This document shows, piece by piece, positions 6,398-15,802 of a DNA stretch of 64,000 nucleotides. Every line of letters begins with the position of its first letter. Position 1 is the first letter of the stretch. The DNA is from an uncultured Candidatus Saccharibacteria bacterium (GTDB lineage: Bacteria; Patescibacteriota; Doudnabacteria; UBA920), in contig CAYVOF010000003.1 in the NCBI GenBank assembly GCA_964453405.1, positions 4,286 to 68,285 of the forward strand. Direction: 5' to 3'. Below the pieces are notes generated by a model that made no database searches, was not told where the DNA came from, and worked only from the letters and a program-made list of their open reading frames with translations. The position numbers and the translations under genes are program-made.

Positions 6398-7072
6398 GTG
6401 ATTAAATATATGCAGAGATACAATCAAGAAACCAAACAAGAAAGTTTTCAATTGCGAAAGAAGGGTTATTCCATAATGGCCATTTCCAAAGAATTAGGGA
6501 TTGCTAAGAGTACAGCCTCGTTATGGGTTAGAAATGTTAAGCTTGACACTGAAGCTATTACGACGTTATCAAAAAATCAAAAGATAGGAAGACAAAAAGG
6601 AATCAATTCAAGACAACTTAGACTGTCCAGAGCATATAATTCTATCCAAAATATTGTTACAAATGATTTGAGTAATAAAGATTTGGACATTTTGACTAAG
6701 AGGTTACTCTGCTCATTCTTATATTGGTGCGAAGGGTCAAAAGCCAGAAGTGAGTTAAGGATAACCAACTCTGATCCAAAACTAATAACTGTATTCTTGA
6801 GATTATTCAGAGAGTCATTTTACTTGGATGAAAGTAAATTTGCTGCAACACTTCACCTGCATGAATACCATGATAAAAATGAAAGGTTGCTTTTTTGGTC
6901 AAACCTCACTAAAATACCTAAGAATCGTATAGGAATTTATAATAAGCCAAATACTGGGAAACGCAAGAAAAAAGACTACCCAGGGTGTATTGCAATTCAT
7001 TATTATGATGTAAAGATGTATGATATTTTAACTGCTTATTATACAAAGTTTTATGAAAATATGGGGGCGTAG
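6398..7072 (+). CDS. HTH-domain protein of unknown function (224 aa)
   Basis: N-terminal resolvase/transposase-like HTH (KKGYSIMAISKELGIAKSTASLWVRN). The last 10 nt overlap the 5' end of tRNA-Trp. It sits at the proximal edge of the cassette array. Confidence 0.5.
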   Translation: MIKYMQRYNQETKQESFQLRKKGYSIMAISKELGIAKSTASLWVRNVKLDTEAITTLSKNQKIGRQKGINSRQLRLSRAYNSIQNIVTNDLSNKDLDILTKRLLCSFLYWCEGSKARSELRITNSDPKLITVFLRLFRESFYLDESKFAATLHLHEYHDKNERLLFWSNLTKIPKNRIGIYNKPNTGKRKKKDYPGCIAIHYYDVKMYDILTAYYTKFYENMGA

Positions 7073-7136
7073 TGTATCGGTCGCACAAATCTCTCCAAAA
7101 GATTTAGGTCGGGTTCAATTCCTGACGCCCCTGCCA
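7063..7136 (+). tRNA. tRNA-Trp (anticodon CCA)
   Basis: Acceptor GGGGGCG/CGCCCCT, anticodon stem AATCT/AGATT, loop C-T-CCA-A-A, T-arm TCGGG-TTCAATT-CCTGA, CCA encoded. Followed by its own terminator hairpin. Confidence 0.85.
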
Positions 7137-7195
7137 CAAGAATCACCGCATAATTGTGCGGTGTTTTTGTATAGGGCAAGTGGAGGTTAGAACTA
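7110..7195 (+). repeat. array repeat R0 (founder copy: tRNA-Trp 3' half + terminator + inverted arm)
   Basis: GGTTCAATTCCTGACGCCCCTGCCA, then CACCGCATAATTGTGCGGTG-TTTTTGT, then ATAGGGCAAGTGGAGGTTAGAACT. Confidence 0.8.
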
Positions 7196-7260
7196 AGTGA
7201 CACAACCAAAATAAAAAAGCTACCGACTTTGATCAGTAGCTTTCACAAAAAGATATCACT

Positions 7261-7833
7261 TTACAGAGAGTAAAAGAAGTAAAGAACTTCTTTAGAAAAC
7301 TTTGTTGGCGGACCATTATGCCATACGTACAATTCTGTCCCAGCGAAGGTAAAACCTTTTCGAAGAAAAAGTTTGCACGCGGAATGTTTAGTTGTATCCA
7401 TTTCTACCCTTATACCATCGCAGTTAGGTTCTTCATTAGCGATTCGTATTAACTCGTCGATAAGAGCATCGGAACAACCTTTGCCTCTAGCTTCGCTAGC
7501 AATAAGGATTCCCCAAACAATCATCACCTTAGTCATTTTTCTCTGTTTCCAAGAGGCGAGCACCCAACCCAGTGGTTTGTCATCTGAACAAACGACTAAA
7601 GCGATATACTCAGGATTATTGATATTAGGAAGAACTTCTTCTGTAATACCTTTGTAGTGGGTAGACTCGATAGTTACTGGTTCAGATAGCTCAACTTCAC
7701 TTAGATCTAGAGTGCTACCATTTAAAGCTAGGGAAAACATTTTGGTGCTAGCTCCAGTATAATTAAGTTTTTGAAGTTCGATACAATCCTGCTCAGTTGC
7801 TTTCCTTACACTGATATTTTTAGAATCATTCAT
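7261..7833 (-). CDS. GNAT family N-acetyltransferase (cassette 1)
   Basis: GNAT core (ALVVCSDDKPLGWVLASW...IASEARGKGCSDALIDELIRIA). GGAGG RBS upstream. Confidence 0.75.
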   Translation of the reverse strand: MNDSKNISVRKATEQDCIELQKLNYTGASTKMFSLALNGSTLDLSEVELSEPVTIESTHYKGITEEVLPNINNPEYIALVVCSDDKPLGWVLASWKQRKMTKVMIVWGILIASEARGKGCSDALIDELIRIANEEPNCDGIRVEMDTTKHSACKLFLRKGFTFAGTELYVWHNGPPTKFSKEVLYFFYSL

Positions 7834-7972
7834 TATTATTTCCTCCAGAAATAAGATTTATATGATATTTCATTATACTATATATTATTAGTTATGTCAA
7901 GTTAGTTTGCATGCGCTCACTTACAGTAATTATAAACTACTTCTAAGTTTTATAATCCAACTTAGTGCAAAT

Positions 7973-8060
7973 AGTTCTAACATCCTCCACCACGCACTGC
8001 CAGCAAAAGCGTCGCATATCTGTGCGGTGTTTTTGTATGGGGCAAGTGTAGGTTAGAACT
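7973..8060 (+). repeat. array repeat R1 (full: left arm + terminator + right arm)
   Basis: AGTTCTAACATCCTCCACCACGCACTGCCAGCAAAAGCGTCGCATATCTGTGCGGTGTTTTTGTATGGGGCAAGTGTAGGTTAGAACT. Confidence 0.85.
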
Positions 8061-8093
8061 GCCGTGGTATAATACAATCAATTAAGAATACAT

Positions 8094-8708
8094 ATGAATA
8101 AAATATTATTATCTATTTCAATTGTTCTTTTCTTGGCAGTAGGTTGCAATCAATCACAACCAAATTCTATTACAAATCCATCTACACAAGATGCAATAGT
8201 GAAAACATCTAATTGGTTGATTTATGGCGATATAAAAATGGGGTATCAGATTAAATATCCTACTGAATTAGTTGCCAGACGTGTTGGTGGAGCATATACA
8301 GGAACCGCAAATAAGGTCCTAAAGGATGATGTGGTCTTTTCCCTATCTTCAGATTGGGCAAAACAGGATGCTATAAGTGAATCCGATACGAAAAGGTGTG
8401 GCAATGACTTTTGTACAGCAACACCGTTTACTCCCATGGGATTGTATCTGAATGTATTCAACAATAGCTCAGTAGGGGGAGGTTACGACGAAGCTGCATC
8501 CCTTTACGCAGCACATAAAGATATTATCAAGGGCTATTTATCGGAATGCACAGCCAATTCAGGGATTGTTCCCCAAGACAAAGCACCTGCAAGTATTTAC
8601 ATAAAACAGATTGAGCCTTCCAAATTCGTTATGGTATGCGCAACCCAAGGCTATGAATCACAAGCCCAGGCAATGTTAAGCACTTTCAATTTTACCAATG
8701 GTTTATAA
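8094..8708 (+). CDS. lipoprotein (cassette 2)
   Basis: Signal peptide with lipobox LAVGC (MNKILLSISIVLFLAVGCNQS). Confidence 0.6.
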   Translation: MNKILLSISIVLFLAVGCNQSQPNSITNPSTQDAIVKTSNWLIYGDIKMGYQIKYPTELVARRVGGAYTGTANKVLKDDVVFSLSSDWAKQDAISESDTKRCGNDFCTATPFTPMGLYLNVFNNSSVGGGYDEAASLYAAHKDIIKGYLSECTANSGIVPQDKAPASIYIKQIEPSKFVMVCATQGYESQAQAMLSTFNFTNGL

Positions 8709-8767
8709 CTTTCATATAAGACAATTCAATTTGCTGGCTCATGAACACACAATTGGCCAATAATGTA

Positions 8768-8833
8768 AGTCCTAACATCCTCCACCACGCCCTGCCACAA
8801 AAGCACCGCATAATTGTGCGGTGTTTTTGTTTT
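8768..8833 (+). repeat. array repeat R2 (left arm + terminator, no right arm)
   Basis: AGTCCTAACATCCTCCACCACGCCCTGCCACAAAAGCACCGCATAATTGTGCGGTGTTTTTGTTTT. Confidence 0.8.
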
Positions 8834-8866
8834 AATAAAAAAAGGGAAGAGTTGCTTCCCATAATA

Positions 8867-9361
8867 TTATCCCCAAATTTTGACATAGATTTTCTTACCC
8901 GAAAAATTATCTTCCTGGTCTTTTTGTTCAAATTGGGTGCCGCAATTTTCGCATTTGTAAAACCCCCAACCTTTATCGTCATGCCCCCAGAGCTTTTGCC
9001 TCTTTTGCTTACATACAGGGCAATCGACACAGTACCAATTTTTTCGGTTTGACTCCGCCTGATGCATTCTCGATAGCAACAGTTCACCGCGTCCAGTCAG
9101 GGAATTCAACTCATACGACTTCATTGCTGTTAGTAACTCAATTAAAGAGCCACTTTCCCCACAATCTGTAACAAATTTGTTTTTTGCGATATCAATATGA
9201 ATGTTACACCCAAACATTTTACAATCTGTGATGACACACCTACCGTGCCAATTCCCGTCCTTGCCCGAATGGCCGTAGGTGTCGAACTCGAATGGTGTTC
9301 TAGTATCAGTAAGCTTTGATTTTGCTGTATCCATTTCGTCCTCCTCATTGAATTTGTCCAT
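8867..9361 (-). CDS. Cys-rich zinc-ribbon protein (cassette 3)
   Basis: Several CxxC pairs (CVDCPVCKQ, CENCGTQ). Start chosen at MDKFNEEDEM; the longer track ORF runs into repeat R3. Confidence 0.5.
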   Translation of the reverse strand: MDKFNEEDEMDTAKSKLTDTRTPFEFDTYGHSGKDGNWHGRCVITDCKMFGCNIHIDIAKNKFVTDCGESGSLIELLTAMKSYELNSLTGRGELLLSRMHQAESNRKNWYCVDCPVCKQKRQKLWGHDDKGWGFYKCENCGTQFEQKDQEDNFSGKKIYVKIWG

Positions 9362-9407
9362 AAATATATCATAGGTCTCAAATATTGACAACTTGCATTT
9401 GTATAAT

Positions 9408-9495
9408 AGTTCTAACATCCTCCACCACGCCCTGCCAGCAAAAGCACCGCATATTTGTGCGGTGTTTTTGTTTGAGGGCAGACAGGAATTGAACT
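9408..9495 (+). repeat. array repeat R3 (full, alternative right arm)
   Basis: The left arm and terminator are as in R1. The right arm GAGGGCAGACAGGAATTGAACT is an inverted copy of a tRNA-Trp-like T-arm/3' end (GTTCAATTCCTG...). Confidence 0.85.
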
Positions 9496-9498
9496 GCT

Positions 9499-10476
9499 GT
9501 GGTATTATTTAATAAAGAATTTAACATTGTGTATATGACTGAAAGAACAAACAATATCAATTTAGAAAACATCGGTATCAACAAAGAGAAAAAGGATATC
9601 CAGTCTGAAAAGCCCATCTTTATAATTTATCGAGAGAATGATCTCTATCGAGATTTTGTACCCAAGCTAGTAAAAAAATTAGAAGAGATGGGTAAAAAAG
9701 TAGAGGTAGAATCCTTCAATCGTGACCAAAATATAGATGAGATTGAACAAAAAGGTTCTGTACTTCTACCCCGCGAAAAGCGAAATGAAATAGCTCTAAA
9801 TACTACAGTCATTATGGATAATACTTCCGCAGAGGCGGTAGGCATGTGGCAACGTCAAGATATAAATCTTGATGACTTAGTAAATCAAATTTACTCCGAT
9901 GTATATTTAGGAAAAGAATTTAACGAACCAAGTCAACTTGAAAATAAAGAAAGTACTTCCTATTCCGAACTGCTAAACATTTTAGGTGGACTTATAGAAG
10001 AAGTGCGAAAAAACTACCCTAATTTAAATACTATAGCCTTAATAAATAATTCATTTGATGTACACGATAAGATTAAGAATACAGACGCAGAGTTACTTGA
10101 TGGGCTAGAAAATAATTTAGAGGCTTTCAACAATTGGGAACGGATGAATACAGAGAGGAAAGGTGCACATGCAGAAAGTCGAGAAATGCGGATATTAATA
10201 AATAGATTGAGTAAACTTATACCAACCGAAAATATTATTGTTTATGACCAGATTACAGATTTTGACAATGACGGACATACTCTAGTTATAGTAGATAGGC
10301 ATCATGTATCTGATGAGGCAAGACTTGAAAAAGCAGGGAAATACCGAATTATTCTTCCGATAGCTAGCGCTATGGAAGATATGGCAAAAAGTGGGCTTTT
10401 GAATCTACCCGAAGAAAAAATTGACCAAAAGCTTTCAGAATTTTTAGAAAGTAAATTTGGGAGTAATGGTCAGTAG
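9499..10476 (+). CDS. hypothetical protein (cassette 4)
   Basis: Intact 325-codon ORF. The start is uncertain: GTG at 9499 or ATG at 9535 (MTERTNNINLENIG). Acidic, no family recognised. Confidence 0.5.
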   Translation: MVLFNKEFNIVYMTERTNNINLENIGINKEKKDIQSEKPIFIIYRENDLYRDFVPKLVKKLEEMGKKVEVESFNRDQNIDEIEQKGSVLLPREKRNEIALNTTVIMDNTSAEAVGMWQRQDINLDDLVNQIYSDVYLGKEFNEPSQLENKESTSYSELLNILGGLIEEVRKNYPNLNTIALINNSFDVHDKIKNTDAELLDGLENNLEAFNNWERMNTERKGAHAESREMRILINRLSKLIPTENIIVYDQITDFDNDGHTLVIVDRHHVSDEARLEKAGKYRIILPIASAMEDMAKSGLLNLPEEKIDQKLSEFLESKFGSNGQ

Positions 10477-10500
10477 CTTGGGCTGCTATACGGTTAATTG

Positions 10501-10566
10501 AGTTCTAACATCATCCACTACGCCCTGCCACAGAGACACTCAACGAAAGTTGGGTGTTTTTGTTTA
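10501..10566 (+). repeat. array repeat R4 (left arm + substituted terminator)
   Basis: AGTTCTAACATCATCCACTACGCCCTGCCA, then a different hairpin CACTCAAC-GAAA-GTTGGGTG, then TTTTTGTTT. Confidence 0.8.
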
Positions 10567-10659
10567 TATGATCGTAAGCTATTGACTCCTACCCGATTTA
10601 TTTGTATAATATTTAGTCTTTAAAATAGACGGAAATCAAAGTTTTTTAGGAGGATATTT

Positions 10660-11805
10660 ATGAAAGAAGCAGTTGCTCCAAAGCGACCAGTCGTGAGGGA
10701 GTTTGAAGTAGAGATAACGCAACTTAACTGGCGTAGTCGCGTTCAGGAAAAAGTTGTTCCGGAAGTTATACCAGACGATATGTTTTACGAAACATCTGAT
10801 CTGGTTAATAAGTTATATCCGGGTAAAGAAATAGTTCATCTGGAACACCCTACAGTTTTTGGTCAACACAATGAAGGTAAGGGAACTTACAGCCTGTTTT
10901 TTAAAACACTGCAGATGTGCTTCAATAAGCACTTTCCATTTGCTTTTAAACCAGAAGCGTTGTGGTACTTAATAGTTCATGAAGTTGCTCAAGCAGTTCT
11001 TCTTAATCCGGAACGTTATCGTTTGTATTTCAGTAATTCAGACGAGCGTCAGGAGATCAAGCTCGATGTTGAATTAGGTCAAGGTGCGAAGATTGAAAAT
11101 TGGGGACCTCATATAATTCAACTTTCAAAATTATTGAAAGAGCAAATTCCTTCTGGTATTGGAGATTTGTTTGCAACTCAGTTTTCAACTTCAACTCCGG
11201 TCAGTGATTCGGCTATGGCTATTACACTGATGCAATCCGCAAGCCCGTTTTACGATTATCGTATGCGTTTATGTTGTGGACTTCCTTTGCTTCGTCTTGA
11301 TGGTCAATCAGGTGACTATGCAGTTTTAGTTGAAAGCGCTAAAGCGCTTAAAACAATCTTTAAGAAAGATCTTGGGTTGTATTTTGATCATCTTATTCCT
11401 GTTCTGGAAAAAATTGCTGATCAAGCGTCGGGTGCGCCAATCGATCATGAGTTTTGGGGATCGTTGTATAATCTGGACAGTGGTTCCGGAGGAAGTAATG
11501 GTTCGGATGGTCTTGGCGGTTGGATGGCATCGTTCATTAATTACTTGCGAGTAGTAAAAGGGAATTTGAATGAAGAGCCTCAAGCTGTAATGCAGGCTAA
11601 GCGTCTTGAGTATTATGATTGGAAAGATAACGACAAGAATCGTATTTCCATAGGTCAAGTTCCTAATCATGTGTCGTCAGTGGACTTTATTTTAGATGAC
11701 TACGGTAAAGAAACTCCAATGCGCTTTATCGGGGGAATGTTATCCGCAGAGGTCATCGATGGGTTTGTTACTCCAGGACTCTCTTATGGAGTTTTGGTAG
11801 ATTAA
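10660..11805 (+). CDS. hypothetical protein (cassette 5, 381 aa)
   Basis: Strong AGGAGG RBS. Gly/Ser-rich internal linker. Its own terminator hairpin lies at 11828-11860 (ATCCTTGG...CCAAGGATTTTTTT). Confidence 0.6.
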   Translation: MKEAVAPKRPVVREFEVEITQLNWRSRVQEKVVPEVIPDDMFYETSDLVNKLYPGKEIVHLEHPTVFGQHNEGKGTYSLFFKTLQMCFNKHFPFAFKPEALWYLIVHEVAQAVLLNPERYRLYFSNSDERQEIKLDVELGQGAKIENWGPHIIQLSKLLKEQIPSGIGDLFATQFSTSTPVSDSAMAITLMQSASPFYDYRMRLCCGLPLLRLDGQSGDYAVLVESAKALKTIFKKDLGLYFDHLIPVLEKIADQASGAPIDHEFWGSLYNLDSGSGGSNGSDGLGGWMASFINYLRVVKGNLNEEPQAVMQAKRLEYYDWKDNDKNRISIGQVPNHVSSVDFILDDYGKETPMRFIGGMLSAEVIDGFVTPGLSYGVLVD

Positions 11806-11971
11806 ACGATCTAAACAACTAGACTTAAATCCTTGGATTTTATCCCAAGGATTTTTTTGTTATTCTTAATACAGAAACCAAGATTTATCACCTCATGAAA
11901 TTATTGGATTTATAAAAAAGTCGATATAAGATGCGATATCAAATATTGTTTATAACGATTTTGGTATAAAT

Positions 11972-12032
11972 AGTTCTAACATCCTCCACCACGCCCTGCC
12001 ACAAAAAAACTCCTTGTAAGGAGTTTTTTTGT
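11972..12032 (+). repeat. array repeat R5 (left arm + substituted terminator)
   Basis: AGTTCTAACATCCTCCACCACGCCCTGCCACAAAAAAACTCCTTGTAAGGAGTTTTTTTGT. Confidence 0.8.
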
Positions 12033-12043
12033 ATAAAATGAAA

Positions 12044-12334
12044 TTATTCTTGACCCGTTTTGATTTCAATGGTTTTGCTTCCCACAGGAGCAGCTTTACA
12101 TCTTCTCATATCAGGAGATCCATACCCATTATCAGGACATATTGTGCCGTTTCTGCAATACCAATCTCCGTGAGGGGAATCGTATTGAGTACACAGGTAT
12201 GAAGGTTCAATATACGCTTTACTATTCAATCCAGCTTTATGAAAAGGTAATCCATATTGTGACCCGTAAATTAGACCTATTACTAAGCCCCCAATCGAGA
12301 GCAGGATACCGTATAAGGCTTCTTTTCTTTTCAT
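12044..12334 (-). CDS. small secreted/membrane Cys-rich protein (cassette 6)
   Basis: N-terminal TM helix, then 5 Cys in 60 residues. 96 aa. Confidence 0.45.
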   Translation of the reverse strand: MKRKEALYGILLSIGGLVIGLIYGSQYGLPFHKAGLNSKAYIEPSYLCTQYDSPHGDWYCRNGTICPDNGYGSPDMRRCKAAPVGSKTIEIKTGQE

Positions 12335-12491
12335 TTTAATGAATTTAATTCTGATAGCTTAATTGTAATTATTATTTTCTTAAATCGCAAGTGGATAACT
12401 TATTTTGTTTTTTATCTTAGTACTAAGCTCATTGCTTATATTCACATTTATCTAAAATCGGATTCTCAAATAAGATTTGATTAGTATAAAT

Positions 12492-12579
12492 AGTTCTAAC
12501 ATCCTTCACCGCGCCCTGCCAGCAAAAGCACCGCATTTTGTGCGGTGTTTTTTGTTTGAGGGCAGACGAGAATCGAACT
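12492..12579 (+). repeat. array repeat R6 (full, alternative right arm)
   Basis: AGTTCTAACATCCTTCACCGCGCCCTGCCAGCAAAAGCACCGCATTTTGTGCGGTGTTTTTTGTTTGAGGGCAGACGAGAATCGAACT. Confidence 0.85.
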
Positions 12580-12597
12580 TTTTGATATAGTTGATTT

Positions 12598-13254
12598 ATG
12601 AAAACAGTTTTAATTACAGGGGTCAGCAGGGGAATTGGGAAAGCTTTGGCTCAAAAGTTTTTAAACGAAGATTACCAGGTAATAGGAACAACTACAGATG
12701 GATTGATAGAATGGCAACACGATAGTTTAAATGTGTTTCCTTTAGATTTATCAAAAGAAGAAAGTATAAAGAGCTGTGCCTCGGAAATTATTAAATTGAA
12801 CAAGCAGATTGATATTCTCATCAATAATGCTGGTATATGGTCTGGTGGTGAAGACGACCCAATGATATATATGGATACTTTTCGTAGGACGATGGAAGTA
12901 AATGTATTTGGCACAGTAGATTTCAGTGAAAGAATTATTCCTATAATGGTAAAGATTGGGCATATTATTAACATCAGCTCGAGAGCTGGCTCAATGTCGT
13001 ATGTGCATGATGCTGAATACCCAGACTACAAGATTTCTAAAGCAGCATTAAATATGGTAAATCGTATGTGGGCAATTAGAATGAAGGACCAAATTATTGT
13101 TTCCTCAGTTCATCCAGGCTGGGTTAAAACGGATATGGGTGGAGATGAGGCTGATATCTATCCAGAAGAGGCAGCTGAGGATATATATAACTTGGCAATA
13201 TCCAAACCTGAAACAGGACAATTTTGGTATAAAGGGCAAAAGTTTAGTTGGTAG
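12598..13254 (+). CDS. short-chain dehydrogenase/reductase (cassette 7)
   Basis: TGVSRGIGKA cofactor motif, NNAG, and catalytic YKISK (YxxxK). Confidence 0.8.
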   Translation: MKTVLITGVSRGIGKALAQKFLNEDYQVIGTTTDGLIEWQHDSLNVFPLDLSKEESIKSCASEIIKLNKQIDILINNAGIWSGGEDDPMIYMDTFRRTMEVNVFGTVDFSERIIPIMVKIGHIINISSRAGSMSYVHDAEYPDYKISKAALNMVNRMWAIRMKDQIIVSSVHPGWVKTDMGGDEADIYPEEAAEDIYNLAISKPETGQFWYKGQKFSW

Positions 13255-13263
13255 TTTGTAGAG

Positions 13264-13351
13264 TAGTTCTAACATCCTTCACTACCCCTGCCAGCAAAAG
13301 CACCGCATATTTGTGCGGTGTTTTTGTGTGGGGCAAGTGGAGGTTAGAACT
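13264..13351 (+). repeat. array repeat R7 (full)
   Basis: AGTTCTAACATCCTTCACTACCCCTGCCAGCAAAAGCACCGCATATTTGTGCGGTGTTTTTGTGTGGGGCAAGTGGAGGTTAGAACT. Confidence 0.85.
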
Positions 13352-13416
13352 GTATCTAATTTTTGACGTCAGTTTAAAAATCATATATTATGAACTTAAG
13401 ATAATCATAAATTTGT

Positions 13417-13629
13417 ATGTCTACAAAAACTTTAGAAAAAATGGTAAAAAATCTCTCTTCCGAAGTAGCCACTCTACGCTCTTTGGTGATTAGTGTTGTC
13501 CGAGAAGAGAAAGACCCAGAAGGAGAATACCGTTCTAAGTTTGTTAAAGACATTCTGAAAGCAGTAAAAGAACCTGTCGTATATGAGTTTAAAGGAAGTA
13601 AGGATTTTCTAAAACTAATTCGTAAGTAA
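13417..13629 (+). CDS. putative antitoxin (cassette 8, gene 1)
   Basis: 70-aa ORF ending 2 nt before the RelE/ParE-like toxin gene. Family not recognisable. Confidence 0.5.
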   Translation: MSTKTLEKMVKNLSSEVATLRSLVISVVREEKDPEGEYRSKFVKDILKAVKEPVVYEFKGSKDFLKLIRK

Positions 13630-13631
13630 TA

Positions 13632-13895
13632 ATGCGAGTAGTTTACACTGAAAAGTTTTTAGCTCAAGCAAAAGAACTTCCTAAAGAAACACAAACTAAA
13701 CTAGCAAGACTATTAGGATTATTAGCAGTAAATCCATTTAATCCTTTATTGCACAGCAAGCGACTCACTGGTAAACTTTCTCAAGAATATTCATTTAGAA
13801 TAACTAGGGATTGGCGAGTCATCTTTATATTCATTTCCAAGGATACCATCAAACTAATTATGGCTCGGCATCGTAAAGACGTTTATCGAAAATAG
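13632..13895 (+). CDS. type II toxin, RelE/ParE (YafQ-like) family (cassette 8, gene 2)
   Basis: Typical C-terminal signature: ...SQEYSFRITRDWRVIFIFI...IKLIMARHRKDVYRK. 87 aa. Confidence 0.7.
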   Translation: MRVVYTEKFLAQAKELPKETQTKLARLLGLLAVNPFNPLLHSKRLTGKLSQEYSFRITRDWRVIFIFISKDTIKLIMARHRKDVYRK

Positions 13896-13981
13896 TTCTA
13901 ACATCCTCTACTACGCCCTGCCAGCAAAAGCATCGCATATTTGTGCGGTGTTTTTGTATGGGGCAAGTGTAGGTTAGAACT
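13894..13981 (+). repeat. array repeat R8 (full, last copy)
   Basis: AGTTCTAACATCCTCTACTACGCCCTGCCAGCAAAAGCATCGCATATTTGTGCGGTGTTTTTGTATGGGGCAAGTGTAGGTTAGAACT. Confidence 0.85.
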
Positions 13982-13997
13982 GGTGTATAACAAATCT

Positions 13998-14711
13998 ATG
14001 AATAGTGAAATAGAAAAACTGATTGAACAGGGTGAGATTGCCCGAGAACAAGATGATTTTCAAACTGCGTTAGTGAGTTTTGATAATGCTATGATTGAAT
14101 CGCTCAAAATTAATGACTATGCTTTAGCGGTTAACGCATTAGGGCATCATTTGCTAGTTTACGATAGATTATATAAACAGACGCAAAATCCTTCGTTTTT
14201 GGAGATGATGTTTATGGACACTCAAACAGGGTTGCGATTGGCAGAAAAAAATAATTTGCACGGACAACCCTTGGCGTTAATGACGATGCGTAGCGCAGAA
14301 TATTATTTGGACACCAAGGATTTTGTGCAAGCCGAACAGCTTTTTCAAAAGGCTTTTGATGAACTAACCCAAGACCAAAATGTTACTAACGAAGAACGGG
14401 CAGAATATTTAGGTCACTTAGCCGAAGCCGTGATCTATCAAGGGGATGTTAATCGATCGAAATCAATTTTTATGAAAGCACATCATTTACTTGAGCAGCA
14501 CTCAAATAAATTAAGAGACTTTCATAAACTAGTTATTCAAAGTGGGTTACTTATGAGAGAAGTTTACGGCTTATATTTAAATCATAAGGTTATTGAAGCT
14601 AAAGAATTAATAAAACAAATCGAACCGTTAGCGGTTAAGTTAAAAAATGAGCATAATATGGACGCGAGATATAATCAGTGGGTTGAGCTTAATGCTAAAT
14701 TGAATTCTTAA
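13998..14711 (+). CDS. TPR-like all-helical protein (distal cassette)
   Basis: Start at MNSEIEKLIEQ; the track's 13941 start lies inside repeat R8. Helical-repeat composition. Confidence 0.55.
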   Translation: MNSEIEKLIEQGEIAREQDDFQTALVSFDNAMIESLKINDYALAVNALGHHLLVYDRLYKQTQNPSFLEMMFMDTQTGLRLAEKNNLHGQPLALMTMRSAEYYLDTKDFVQAEQLFQKAFDELTQDQNVTNEERAEYLGHLAEAVIYQGDVNRSKSIFMKAHHLLEQHSNKLRDFHKLVIQSGLLMREVYGLYLNHKVIEAKELIKQIEPLAVKLKNEHNMDARYNQWVELNAKLNS

Positions 14712-14809: not shown

Positions 14810-15202
14810 ATGTCAGCTTTTGAAAAGGAAAAAATCTTTGTTGAGTTAAGAAAGTACCATTTGGAAGAATTCCCAAAACCTCTGGCAACTGAGCAAATGA
14901 CTACTCTTTTAACTGAATATAAAGAAATCGAAGACGCTATTGTCAGCATGATTTTTGGCTTGGTTAATGGTAAGACGGAATTTGTAGATTTTAGGACTCA
15001 ACTTAAAGATTTTAATAAAAAAGTAAAACCTGGATTAACTACAGACAAAGCTGAGACTTCAAATCGTGAACTATTTCTTTCCAAATCTTTTCAACTTTCA
15101 AATATTCTAGATATTGCTTCTGGAGGAAACTTTAAGCTCCGACCGATTCGTAAACCAAAAATTATTCGCAGCACTAATCCCCGCGAAGTCATAGAAAATT
15201 AA
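14810..15202 (+). CDS. hypothetical protein (130 aa)
   Basis: Intact ORF with a TATAAT-like box upstream. No family recognised. Confidence 0.45.
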   Translation: MSAFEKEKIFVELRKYHLEEFPKPLATEQMTTLLTEYKEIEDAIVSMIFGLVNGKTEFVDFRTQLKDFNKKVKPGLTTDKAETSNRELFLSKSFQLSNILDIASGGNFKLRPIRKPKIIRSTNPREVIEN

Positions 15203-15253
15203 ACCGCTAGCCTAGCTTGCGGTTTTTTGATGCATTTTTGATATAATACAAAT

Positions 15254-15802
15254 ATGAACAAACTCGAAGCAAAAGTCTTATTTGATCAAGCCTTAGCCCA
15301 CAAAAATGAGCACAAATGCAGTGCGGCTCCCTATGAACAGTTCGAAAAACTGGAAGAAATTGTGGAAAGGGTAAATCCAAAAACCATTTTAGAAATTGGA
15401 ACGGGAATTGGTTTTAGTGCTGTTGTCATGGCTTCGGTTGTGCCAAATTGTCACATTGATACGATCGAAAAAGACCCTGTGCATGTAGCTACTGCTCGCG
15501 ACTTTATTCATCTTCAGGGTTTTCAAACCATTACAGTTTTAAATGATATCGCCGAAGTTAAATTGCAAGATTTAGTGCTAGAGAATAAATCGTATGATTT
15601 AATCTTTTTTGACGGTCATCAGATTCACCAGGAATTCTTGCCTCATTATGAAAAACTGCTCAAACCAGGTGGAATTTTAATTCTCGCCAACACACATTTG
15701 AACAGTAAAACCAGTCCAGAGTTTTTTGATCAACTAGTTCATAACGGCAATTGGGAAATCGCTAATCAATTTGATGACACTATTGTCGCTCATCGAATTT
15801 AG
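15254..15802 (+). CDS. class I SAM-dependent O-methyltransferase
   Basis: ILEIGTGIGFSAVVMA (motif I), IDTIEKD, and FDLIFFDG, a family-3 O-MT-like arrangement. Confidence 0.7.
   Translation: MNKLEAKVLFDQALAHKNEHKCSAAPYEQFEKLEEIVERVNPKTILEIGTGIGFSAVVMASVVPNCHIDTIEKDPVHVATARDFIHLQGFQTITVLNDIAEVKLQDLVLENKSYDLIFFDGHQIHQEFLPHYEKLLKPGGILILANTHLNSKTSPEFFDQLVHNGNWEIANQFDDTIVAHRI

Follow-up and report, generated by a model that had tools for sequence, protein, structure and literature searches.

The tRNA-Trp locus and its cassettes

The window (the whole 64-kb stretch of DNA analyzed here) contains an intact tRNA-Trp gene followed by an array of nine repeat units, R0 to R8, which separate eight cassettes (Table 1). 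R0 is fused to the tRNA gene itself, and the other units are eight further direct copies. The cassettes hold eight mutually unrelated accessory genes or gene pairs, measure 0.5-1.5 kb and mostly contain a single gene. Three of the eight are on the minus strand, and consensus promoters and terminators occur inside cassettes. For the ORF of cassette 4, a homologue search of 5.8 billion proteins came back empty, and other arrays contain no homologue. The TAG stop of the cassette 8 toxin overlaps the first bases of R8, the distal end of the array. The sequence GGTGTATAAC, a −10 box, follows R8 directly, as does a TPR gene at 13998-14711. On the other side of the array, the HTH/LAGLIDADG-like ORF is found at the same position in seven other loci.

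Table 1. Features of the tRNA-Trp array, in coordinates of the window.
Feature	Position	Strand	Description
Neighboring ORF	6398..7072	+	HTH domain and LAGLIDADG-like fold; stop overlaps 5' end of tRNA-Trp
tRNA-Trp(cca)	7063..7136	+	ARAGORN; Rfam tRNA, 50.6 bits
Putative recombination core (attB side)	7127-7136	+	GCCCCTGCCA; last 10 nt of tRNA-Trp; breakpoints in related loci
Unit R0	7108..7195	+	tRNA 3' half, terminator 7144-7163, standard right arm ending in GAACT 7174-7194; putative attL
Cassette 1	7196..7972	-	GNAT acetyltransferase ORF 7261-7833; Pfam PF00583, E = 1e-9
Cassette 1, own consensus promoter and terminator	7900-7872; 7244-7215	-	Promoter/terminator scan
Unit R1	7973..8060	+	Left arm, core (CACTGCCA), terminator, standard right arm; extended −10 box TGGTATAAT next
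Cassette 2	8061..8767	+	Predicted lipoprotein ORF 8094-8708, without known family
Unit R2	8768..8830	+	Left arm, core, terminator (both strands); no right arm
Cassette 3	8831..9407	-	Cys-rich ORF 8867 to about 9340
Cassette 3, own terminator and promoter	8860-8844; 9391-9363	-	
Unit R3	9408..9495	+	Left arm, core, terminator, T-type right arm
Cassette 4	9496..10500	+	ORFan, 313-325 aa
Unit R4	10501..10563	+	Left arm, core, different terminator hairpin; no right arm
Cassette 5	10564..11971	+	DUF4419 protein 10660-11805; Pfam PF14388, E = 4e-47
Cassette 5, own promoter and terminator	10582-10610; 11827-11854	+	
Unit R5	11972..12034	+	Left arm, core, different bidirectional terminator that also ends cassette 6; no right arm
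Cassette 6	12035..12491	-	96-aa membrane or secreted ORF 12044-12334
Unit R6	12492..12579	+	Left arm, core, terminator, T-type right arm (GACGAGAATCGAACT)
Cassette 7	12580..13264	+	Short-chain dehydrogenase 12598-13254; Pfam PF00106, E = 1e-35
Unit R7	13265..13351	+	Left arm (1-nt deletion), core, terminator, standard right arm
Cassette 8	13352..13893	+	Toxin-antitoxin pair 13417-13629, 13632-13895 (RelE/YoeB/ParE-like); Pfam
Unit R8	13894..13981	+	Left arm, core, terminator, standard right arm; distal end of array

Structure of the repeat units

Units R1 to R8 begin with a 30-nt left arm (AGTTCTAAC..CGCCCTGCCA), present in eight direct copies between 7973 and 13923, all on the plus strand and downstream of tRNA-Trp; the number expected by chance is 0. 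The left-arm sequence AGTTCTAACATCCTCCACCACGCCCTGCCA gave seven matches at up to three mismatches and none in shuffled sequences, and the eighth copy, in R7 (13265), has a 1-nt deletion. A profile search of the 64-kb window found no left arm outside the array. Because the copies are confined in this way, a role for the left arm as a DNA-uptake sequence was rejected. Units within the same genome are 87-100% identical across 30-88 nt. Boxes resembling −10 elements precede several left arms, and CCTCC is found in the left arm and GGAGG in the right arm.

The original prediction described the left arm as a look-alike of a tRNA 3' end. This description applies to the last ~11 nt, which constitute the core and correspond to the 3' end of tRNA-Trp; tRNA similarity rises above chance in these last 11 nt only (p = 0.003). 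It does not extend to the first 19 nt, where similarity to the T-arm is no greater than that of shuffled sequence (p = 0.63). A T-arm fold and a 5' acceptor partner are both absent from the left arm, and Rfam detects no tRNA there. More broadly, Rfam searches of the window at the gathering threshold, of positions 6900-14300 at permissive settings and of ten related loci returned only tRNAs, chance hits driven by the terminators, and one LOOT RNA (in locus L016). An intermediate form in a related locus suggests that the left arm and the tRNA end share descent. The core CGCCCTGCCA is repeated eight times in direct orientation and tRNA-Trp is intact, as expected of an element that targets a tRNA gene.

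Each left arm is followed by a terminator hairpin that scores on both strands in a terminator scan, and the central hairpin shows compensatory changes in 10 of its 15 pairs. R0 reads as had been claimed, with the tRNA 3' half (the tRNA is confirmed by ARAGORN and Rfam) followed by the hairpin CACCGCATAATTGTGCGGTG with its T-run and then by the right-arm sequence ATAGGGCAAGTGGAGGTTAGAACT. Its proposed status as a founder copy carrying the tRNA's own terminator was not borne out: the R0 hairpin is of the unit type, identical to that of R2, and the terminator next to tRNA-Trp in three related loci (L002, L003 and L034) differs from it. This pattern fits a terminator and right arm brought in by the newest cassette, so that the terminator of R0 probably has its origin in a cassette and not in the tRNA gene. 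Terminator type in the window tracks what stands to its right, which points to an exchange point left of the terminator. The same three related loci share one common tRNA-proximal terminator with different right arms, a pattern that an exchange point right of the terminator would fit equally well.

An inverted right arm was predicted for R1 to R8, making every boundary a palindrome around a bidirectional terminator. The terminator is indeed present on both strands, and the right arm is an imperfect inverse in six of the nine units, R0 included, but not every boundary is a palindrome since R2, R4, and R5 consist of left arm and terminator without a right arm. The right arms of R3 and R6 are of a separate T-type and, as predicted, are inverse copies of a tRNA T-arm; in R3, the arm when reverse-complemented has 12 consecutive bases (GTTCAATTCCTG) in common with the window's own tRNA-Trp. 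These T-type arms (ATTGAAC, ATCGAAC) contain no GTT.

The inverted arms are ~70 bp apart, the distance from the core to the GAACT end is 55-59 nt (58 nt in R0), and the length of full units is constant at 86-89 nt though the hairpin sequence varies between lineages. Single-strand folding, one of the checks that had been suggested, shows that full units form long, imperfect, bulged hairpins with z between −2.6 and −6.4; for example, R3 folds at −18.4 kcal/mol (z = −4.5) and R7 at −24.9 kcal/mol (z = −6.4). The outer stem AGTTC/GAACT is invariant and shows no covariation, so its pairing is neither supported nor opposed. A −10 box occurs after the right arm, and transcription is predicted to start at or close to the ATG behind the GGTGTATAAT box. 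Along with the terminators, the predicted promoters agree with the proposal that cassettes are transcriptionally insulated, in both orientations.

Breakpoints in related loci

The loci compared for breakpoints come from Saccharibacteria relatives and a Paceibacteria-like lineage, which are other species than the window's own. In two Patescibacteria classes, unrelated islands meet a common flank precisely where tRNA-Trp ends on its 3' side, at (G)CCCCTGCCA, in support of the earlier suggestion of a tRNA-targeting attachment site. For example, the strain pair L038 and L039 have identical MetRS and share a 13.8-kb flank of 99% identity that starts at CCTGCCA. Upstream of it their islands differ (type III restriction-modification versus KAP NTPase/DUF3644), and one island terminates in a left arm and the other in a tRNA-like fragment. 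The left arm of L010 equals that of L004 and L009, with divergence immediately after CCCCTGCCAA, and in L009 the segment behind the tRNA CCA recurs behind the left-arm CCA. A HAM1 cassette is homologous from core to core between L001 and L012. Furthermore, inserts of 20-50 nt bracketed by duplicated CCTGCCA are found in related loci.

Saccharibacteria have the 30-nt left arm in common with a Paceibacteria/Falkowbacteria-like lineage, where it is conserved within surrounding sequences that are unrelated, and most units in other lineages have no right arm. Eight metagenome loci have a left arm 0.7-4.5 kb downstream of tRNA-Trp. Arrays of several kinds were seen: L002 has tRNA-Trp and two methyltransferase cassettes with full units, L003 a single cassette between a tRNA-plus-arm and a left-arm-plus-terminator, L008 at least six left arms, and L029 four. 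Saccharibacteria relatives keep the gene order around tRNA-Trp, with different genes downstream and decayed left arms; L032-L034 are among the loci whose arms have decayed.

The search for a recombinase

All six-frame ORFs from the 64-kb window were searched by phmmer with IntI1 and XerD as queries, giving no match at E <= 1; the Xer-like gene of L038/L039, recovered by the same queries at 1e-43 and 1e-18, served as a positive control. The window encodes no integron integrase and no tyrosine or serine recombinase, Pfam found no recombinase among the neighboring ORFs, and none of the eight cassettes, nor any cassette in related arrays, encodes an integrase. Across ~450 kb of related loci, the only recombinase of a tested kind beside an array is the Xer-like gene of L038/L039, located 11 kb from the core and inside the conserved flank. 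A RAYT/IS200-type gene was not found. Viral contigs were scanned for the left arm, seeking a phage or plasmid with the site beside an integrase, with 0 hits.

Two further ideas were considered and rejected. The HTH/LAGLIDADG-like ORF is missing from most loci with left arms and is present in Nealsonbacteria/Harrisonbacteria loci that have none. The likeness of the left arm to a dif-like (Xer) site is limited to the 6 nt TAACAT, judged by eye.

Proposed serial insertion at the tRNA-Trp 3' end

We propose, with a probability of roughly 0.6, that the nine units are attachment-site junctions and that the eight integrase-less cassettes were inserted serially and site-specifically at the 3' end of tRNA-Trp. 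Exchange would take place inside the last 7-10 nt of the tRNA, at (G)CCCCTGCCA. A free cassette, presumably a circular intermediate, would carry a complete site made of left arm, core, and terminator, with the right arm, whatever part it may play, being optional. Insertion would restore the tRNA and set the cassette's terminator and right arm beside it, as seen in R0, and the cassette's left arm and core copy would land at the far side, as seen in R1 to R8. Repeated insertion next to the tRNA would then drive older cassettes outward. The recombinase would act in trans from a gene outside the window, and is most likely a tyrosine recombinase.

In the Saccharibacteria lineage the site appears to have grown into a hairpin-capable module of ~88 nt that supplies a terminator and a promoter. 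The module is predicted to stop transcription from both sides and often to provide a −10 promoter abutting the next ORF, which would make each cassette an insulated expression unit. Several observations sit less easily with the model. Among the assembled contigs, neither a circular form nor an empty site was seen, and no recombinase lies in the window. Simple tRNA-proximal insertion predicts a single T-type arm at the distal end, versus the two observed in mid-array (R3 and R6) with a standard arm last. Furthermore, a plain core-type site does not account for a spacing fixed at 55-59 nt or for ends that are always AGTTC/GAACT.

Alternative explanations

Different explanations can be put forward for the same observations. 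It is unlikely that the array was assembled without a dedicated recombinase, through natural transformation and RecA homologous exchange in which units and flanks serve as anchors and the core is a relic of an old integration. The high identity of the units would provide short homology on either side of every cassette, mixed units, in which a left arm is combined with a T-type arm or the tRNA with a standard arm, resemble products of exchange between units, and the difference between L038 and L039 could have spread by replacement via their long identical flank. However, the conservation of the left arm across lineages amid unrelated sequence points to sequence-specific recognition, unrelated islands stop at one 7-nt position, and the short inserts between duplicated CCTGCCA are unexpected from such exchange. 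Distinctly unlikely, in our judgement, is an integron-like system, in which the 88-nt units are attC-type single-strand hairpins, folding on incoming transforming DNA or the lagging strand, for example, and their paired outer arms are recombined by an IntI-like enzyme encoded elsewhere. The original prediction had also seen features of attC hairpins here, and the likeness of shape stands: full units, of steady length despite lineage-specific hairpin sequences, fold as long imperfect hairpins with bulges on one strand, and in standard units the outer arms TTCTAAC/GTTAGAA each match 6/7 positions of RYYYAAC/GTTRRRY, the attC core consensus. Single-ORF cassettes, ORFans, toxin-antitoxin pairs, and some stops that overlap the site would also be at home in an integron. 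The likeness does not carry over to the position of exchange or the parts involved, as breakpoints fall in the core that derives from the tRNA, which ends 55-59 nt before the GAACT end, instead of at the right-hand core site. The right arm is dispensable, being missing from three window units and most units elsewhere, and where it is T-type it has no GTT; the outer stem is without covariation. There is no integrase in the window and no attI-type promoter arrangement, with a terminator in each unit and cassettes of mixed orientation that have their own promoters.

The units might alternatively be a local repeat of the REP/BIME or MITE type that provides termination and promoters, spreads by duplication and has no role in moving genes. 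A terminator strongly backed by covariation and bidirectional by its sequence, the −10 box behind the right arm, and inverted AGTTC...GAACT ends that resemble terminal inverted repeats are all in keeping with this idea. We nevertheless regard it as highly unlikely given that the copies occur solely in the tRNA-Trp array and in one orientation, the first unit is fused to the tRNA, left arms without right arm or promoter persist in many lineages, strain-level differences in content break at the core, and the search for a RAYT/IS200-type gene was negative. Least credible of all is a function at the RNA level, with left arm and terminator forming a tRNA-like 3' UTR or small RNA that acts as a mimic of the CCA end or through pairing of an anti-Shine-Dalgarno CCUCC with the GGAGG of the right arm. 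This draws on the position of the left arm in the 3' UTR of plus-strand cassettes, on the −10-like boxes ahead of several left arms and on the CCTCC and GGAGG motifs. Against it, the left arm has neither T-arm fold nor 5' acceptor partner, Rfam was empty, and the left arm is not co-transcribed with genes of minus-strand cassettes. In addition, the cassette promoters begin only downstream of the right arm, which is therefore outside the mRNA and leaves an anti-Shine-Dalgarno or small-RNA role unsupported.

Wider significance

Patescibacteria (CPR) have tiny genomes and few recognized mobile elements, and their routes of gene exchange are poorly understood. A literature search on integrons/attC, gene cassettes, tRNA-Trp, and integrases in Saccharibacteria/Patescibacteria/CPR found no prior description of such arrays. 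A broader and rather doubtful reading is that these bacteria own a phylum-wide platform for gene capture at tRNA-Trp, with an unlinked recombinase and, in Saccharibacteria, the 88-nt module. It would be recognizable by the conserved 30-nt arm AGTTCTAAC.TC....AC..(G)CCCCTGCCA. The Saccharibacteria site would be attC-like, with fixed geometry and a terminator and abutting promoter for each captured ORF, so that the platform could work as a functional analogue of integrons whose cassettes are insulated and individually expressed. The recombinase might be the single host Xer or an undescribed enzyme, and its substrate might be single-stranded DNA that these naturally competent cells take up.

A single conserved hotspot for accessory and defence genes would explain much of the strain-level variation in gene content. 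Genes at the site in the window and its relatives comprise acetyltransferases, toxin-antitoxin pairs, methyltransferases, restriction-modification systems, KAP NTPases, and ORFans. For engineering these organisms, which are hard to manipulate, it would also provide a landing site that is natural and transcriptionally insulated. Metagenomes can be searched for such arrays simply by means of the conserved 30-nt arm. With the enzyme unlinked, the system poses the question of which recombinase recognizes the site.

Comparison with known systems

The units are like REP/BIME elements in being intergenic imperfect palindromes that hold a terminator hairpin. Unlike these, they form one array at a tRNA gene, in one orientation, and coincide with breakpoints in gene content. 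The pdif modules of Acinetobacter plasmids, and IMEX at dif, are moved by a host recombinase that they do not carry. Similarities to them include small gene modules, toxin-antitoxin pairs among them, between short recombination sites, and the fact that the only recombinase near any array (L038/L039) is Xer-like. In contrast to pdif sites, inspection of the unit sequences revealed no 28-bp dif-like 11-6-11 inverted structure; pdif sites alternate and those in the array are all direct, and the target is a tRNA 3' end instead of dif.

In integrons, attC palindromes are 57-141 nt long with the core consensus RYYYAAC/GTTRRRY, and a cluster of attC sites without an integrase is termed a CALIN, so an intI next to the array is not required. 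Like an integron, the tRNA-Trp array strings together single-gene cassettes, among them many ORFans and toxin-antitoxin pairs, and every cassette is followed by a site of similar size (86-89 nt) that, in full units, is an imperfect palindrome able to form a bulged single-strand hairpin. Its outer arms are similar to the core consensus and, as in a CALIN, no integrase is nearby. It differs from integrons in that crossover is placed at the tRNA-derived core instead of at G/TT in the right arm, an arm that is itself dispensable, and the array is anchored on a tRNA gene. Neither intI nor attI/Pc adjoins the array, every unit contains a terminator, and the cassettes, far from being co-oriented and promoterless, have their own promoters and lie in both orientations.

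In the way it would work, the array is like tRNA-targeted islands. A CIME, the cis-mobilizable element of Streptococcus ICEs, is defined as an att-flanked element without recombination genes, and the cassettes are CIME-like in being bounded by putative att sites and in carrying no recombination or transfer genes. Since they have no integrase of their own, we class them as satellite or CIME-like elements and not as an ordinary island. In tycheposons, successive insertions at one site displace older elements and leave further partial tRNAs (bioRxiv 10.1101/2020.12.28.424599). As in tRNA-targeted islands, CIMEs, and the tycheposon arrays of Prochlorococcus, insertion would occur in the 3' part of the tRNA gene with the tRNA rebuilt, and a partial tRNA 3' end is found as a direct repeat at the far end. 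Content varies between close relatives and breaks at the repeat (L038/L039; L004/L009/L010), again as in such islands. The array departs from them in that its cassettes are 0.5-1.5 kb, compared with several kb to tens of kb, and that 0/8 cassettes have an integrase, with none in the 64-kb window. It departs from them too in the design of the attachment site, which has a conserved non-tRNA arm common to classes of the phylum and to which, in this lineage, a terminator, a promoter, and an inverted arm spaced at a constant distance have been added.

Organization of the repeat

Of nine repeat units, R0 is fused to the tRNA-Trp gene and R1 to R8 lie downstream, one at the far end of each cassette. 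In R0, the 3' portion of the tRNA is followed by a G+C-rich hairpin, CACCGCATAATTGTGCGGTG, flanked by an A-tract upstream and a T-run downstream, and then by a closing 24-nt segment, ATAGGGCAAGTGGAGGTTAGAACT. Downstream units start with a 30-nt left arm, AGTTCTAACATCCTCCACCACGCCCTGCCA, found seven times with ≤3 mismatches and never in shuffled sequence; an eighth copy carries a 1-nt deletion. All copies are on the plus strand, with starts from 7973 to 13894 and a spacing of 520–1471 nt, and a profile search of the 64-kb window found none beyond the array. With seven matches against zero in shuffles, and none elsewhere in the window, the repeat is far beyond chance and real, as the original prediction claimed. 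Its likeness to a tRNA 3' end, proposed for the whole left arm, holds for the last 11 nt (p = 0.003) and fails for the first 19 nt (p = 0.63).

The hairpin that follows every left arm was recognised as a terminator in both directions by the scan, in line with the bidirectional terminator proposed. Compensatory changes affect 10 of its 15 pairs among 11 full units from six genomes, showing that it is under selection as a structure. The right arm is more variable. It is an imperfect inverse of the left arm, ending GAACT, in R0, R1, R7, and R8; in R3 and R6 it is, as predicted, the inverse of a tRNA T-arm (T-type) with the same ending, and the R3 arm, once reverse-complemented, matches the window's own tRNA-Trp over an uninterrupted run of 12 bases. 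Inspection of R2, R4, and R5 showed no right arm, so that the palindrome envisaged at every boundary exists only at the other six units. Full units fold into long, bulged single-strand hairpins (z-scores −2.6 to −6.4), in agreement with the original prediction. The outer stem bases, AGTTC/GAACT, are invariant, and covariation therefore says nothing for or against their pairing. Wherever a right arm exists, in the window and related loci, 55–59 nt separate the end of the tRNA-derived core from the end of GAACT, despite differing hairpin sequences. A −10 box usually stands directly after the right arm where one is present, only ∼6–20 nt before the ATG; by sequence, the unit therefore acts as a terminator plus promoter adaptor. 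Overall, the original observation is confirmed with corrections, and its interpretation is partly supported.

Cassettes and genomic neighbourhood

The eight cassettes between the units carry mutually unrelated accessory genes. Consensus promoters and terminators of their own are present in the minus-strand cassettes and some plus-strand ones. Several cassette ORFs end in a TAG stop made of a T and the AG that opens the left arm, and the arm additionally supplies an in-frame TAA (TAGTTCTAA); stop codons formed in this way recall those inside integron attC sites.

Core genes are found in the remainder of the window (rpsB, tsf, mur genes, secA, secDF, ATP synthase). Right of the variable region are a small ORF and an O-methyltransferase gene, and a similar pair occupies this position in L034; by gene content, the pair may mark a conserved right-hand limit of the hotspot.

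Features of the array and of related loci (L numbers; coordinates of each locus are its own)
Feature	Location	Strand	Remarks
tRNA-Trp(cca) gene	7063-7136	+	ARAGORN and Rfam
T-arm and acceptor 3' strand of tRNA-Trp, G+C-rich hairpin, 24-nt segment	7110-7195	+	
Cassette: GNAT acetyltransferase		-	
Cassette: lipoprotein		+	
Cassette: Cys-rich protein		-	
Cassette: 313-aa ORFan		+	no homologue among 5.8 billion proteins searched
Cassette: DUF4419 protein		+	
Cassette: 96-aa protein		-	
Cassette: short-chain dehydrogenase		+	
Cassette: RelE/YoeB-like toxin-antitoxin pair		+	
TAG stop made with left arm AG	window 13893-13895; L002 729-731, 1531-1533; L003 5153-5155; L012 917-919		
Small ORF and O-methyltransferase	window 14810-15802		PF01596
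120-aa ORF and methyltransferase	L034 13023-13915		PF01596
Xer-like tyrosine recombinase	L038 18915-19874; L039 16965-17924		NCBIfam XerD, 229 bits, under equivalog cut-off
Additional tRNA-Trp 3'-end fragments	L001 1250-1351, 2150-2175; L012 180-290		e.g. GACCGATTCCTTCAGCCCCTGCCA
ORF-free stretch, ∼430 nt	L029 ∼12700-12280 (minus-strand numbering)		
LOOT RNA (RF03000)	L016 13971-14082		78 bits

Related loci

Three related loci came from a scan with one genome per species and 28 from a metagenome scan. In L002, tRNA-Trp is followed by a terminator, a right arm, and then two methyltransferase cassettes with full 86–88-nt units. In L003, a Saccharibacteria MAG contig whose RpsB and Tsf are 84–87% identical to the window's, one cassette is bounded by the tRNA, a terminator, and a T-type arm on one side, and by a left arm and another terminator, with no right arm there, on the other; this looks like a single insertion. 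L002, L003, and L034 have one common tRNA-proximal terminator and differing right arms. At least six left arms were counted in L008 and four in L029, and in eight metagenome loci tRNA-Trp lies 0.7–4.5 kb upstream of a left arm. Within any one array, left arms are in direct orientation throughout. The G+C content of the loci ranges from 26% to 52%, and the nearest proteins to the MetRS of the L004 lineage come from Falkowbacteria, Parcubacteria, and Paceibacterota; conservation of the left arm thus extends over at least two Patescibacteria classes. Units outside Saccharibacteria mostly comprise left arm, core, and terminator alone.

Among side observations, the additional tRNA-Trp fragments in L001 and L012 are preceded by 100–140 nt of non-coding, possibly structured sequence, and ARAGORN and Rfam made no call in these regions. 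The ORF-free stretch of L029 immediately follows the first left arm and terminator, with no Rfam match at the gathering threshold. The LOOT RNA, which lies ∼9 kb away from that contig's left arm, is probably unrelated to the array.

Breakpoints and proposed mechanism

Several comparisons place exchange in the tRNA-derived core. In L009, ∼130 nt after the tRNA CCA are found again after the left arm CCA (∼75% identity), and the similarity of L010 to L004 and L009 covers the left arm and stops right past CCCCTGCCAA. Contigs with identical MetRS contain two island types: one (L038, L040) combines a type III restriction-modification system with small ORFs and terminates in a left arm; the other (L039, L041, L042), with a KAP NTPase and DUF3644 among its genes, terminates in a tRNA-like fragment, GGGGTTCTAGACCTTCCTTGCCTGCCA. 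Their right flanks (13.8 kb, 99% identical) start exactly at CCTGCCA. L001 and L012 have a HAM1 cassette in common, and its homology extends from one core to the next. In the window, terminator type tracks what stands on its right: the GCAAAAGC... type is followed by a right arm in every case, and unique terminators stand before armless cassettes, one of which also terminates minus-strand cassette 6 from the other side. In form, the L039 fragment stands between T-arm and left arm, suggesting descent of the left arm from a tRNA-Trp 3' half.

In several loci, 20–50-nt inserts lie between duplicated CCTGCCA right after the left arm or tRNA. These look like footprints of the same exchange process; those in L016, L023, L008 (∼11659), and L018 are often hairpin-forming and G+C-rich. 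They may be minimal cassettes or excision footprints.

We favour, with a probability of roughly 0.6, the reading that the units are recombined attachment sites in a cassette array at tRNA-Trp. In the mechanism inferred from these comparisons, a complete cassette site (a left arm, core, and terminator, with or without a right arm) would recombine with the tRNA-Trp 3' end inside (G)CCCCTGCCA. Insertion would restore the tRNA and place beside it the terminator and right arm of the cassette, matching R0; the far end would keep the left arm and one core copy, and repeated insertions would build the array. R0 had been taken as the founder, with a terminator native to the tRNA. On this reading it is probably not one: R0 and R2 have identical hairpins, and three relatives have another tRNA-proximal terminator. 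Features that the mechanism does not explain are the T-type arms inside the array (R3, R6), the constant spacing and invariant ends of full units, and the tRNA-proximal terminator that L002, L003, and L034 share despite differing right arms. They leave room for the right arm to have a function, which could involve folding in the manner of attC.

The recombinase would be unlinked to the array, with a tyrosine recombinase in trans as the default. Searches of the window and ∼450 kb of related loci for tyrosine or serine recombinases and IS200-type transposases returned only a Xer-like gene in L038 and L039, and a Pfam search of unknown ORFs adjoining the array found no recombinase. The negative is meaningful because the same queries detected that gene (XerD 1e-43, IntI1 1e-18). 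It lies 11 kb downstream of the core, within the conserved flank, and is the sole recombinase seen near any array, a candidate by position.

Homologous exchange alone, which would involve no such enzyme, is an unlikely explanation of the array. An integron-like single-strand mechanism is slightly less probable still. The array resembles attC arrays in shape and cargo. However, three of four integron hallmarks are absent: no linked integrase was found in the window, the breakpoints differ from crossover in an integron's right core site, and the cassettes are not co-oriented behind a Pc promoter. The fourth, the attC core consensus, gave a mixed picture, with 6 of 7 positions matching in each outer arm of standard units, no GTT in T-type arms, and no right arm at all in three units. 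Of the mixture of tRNA attachment site and attC first proposed, the tRNA part fits the breakpoints and the attC part is a likeness of shape. A purely regulatory repeat, whose whole role would be the adaptor function, is improbable beside these breakpoints, and an RNA role of the units is very improbable.

Comparison with known systems

A dif-like site was rejected as the identity of the unit, and literature searches, one of them with the left arm sequence itself, turned up no description of such an array. Judged from sequence, the tRNA-Trp cassette array would be a variant of the known tRNA-targeted kind, previously undescribed in the literature searched. It functions in the manner of the integrase-less CIMEs and of tRNA-targeted islands that accrete in tandem, such as tycheposons, which are described as stacking at tRNAs and leaving partial tRNAs behind (bioRxiv 10.1101/2020.12.28.424599). 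In contrast to these elements, the window's array has no integrase, its cassettes are the size of single genes, a conserved non-tRNA arm recurs across classes, and the site in this lineage is an 88-nt hairpin-capable module with its own terminator and promoter.
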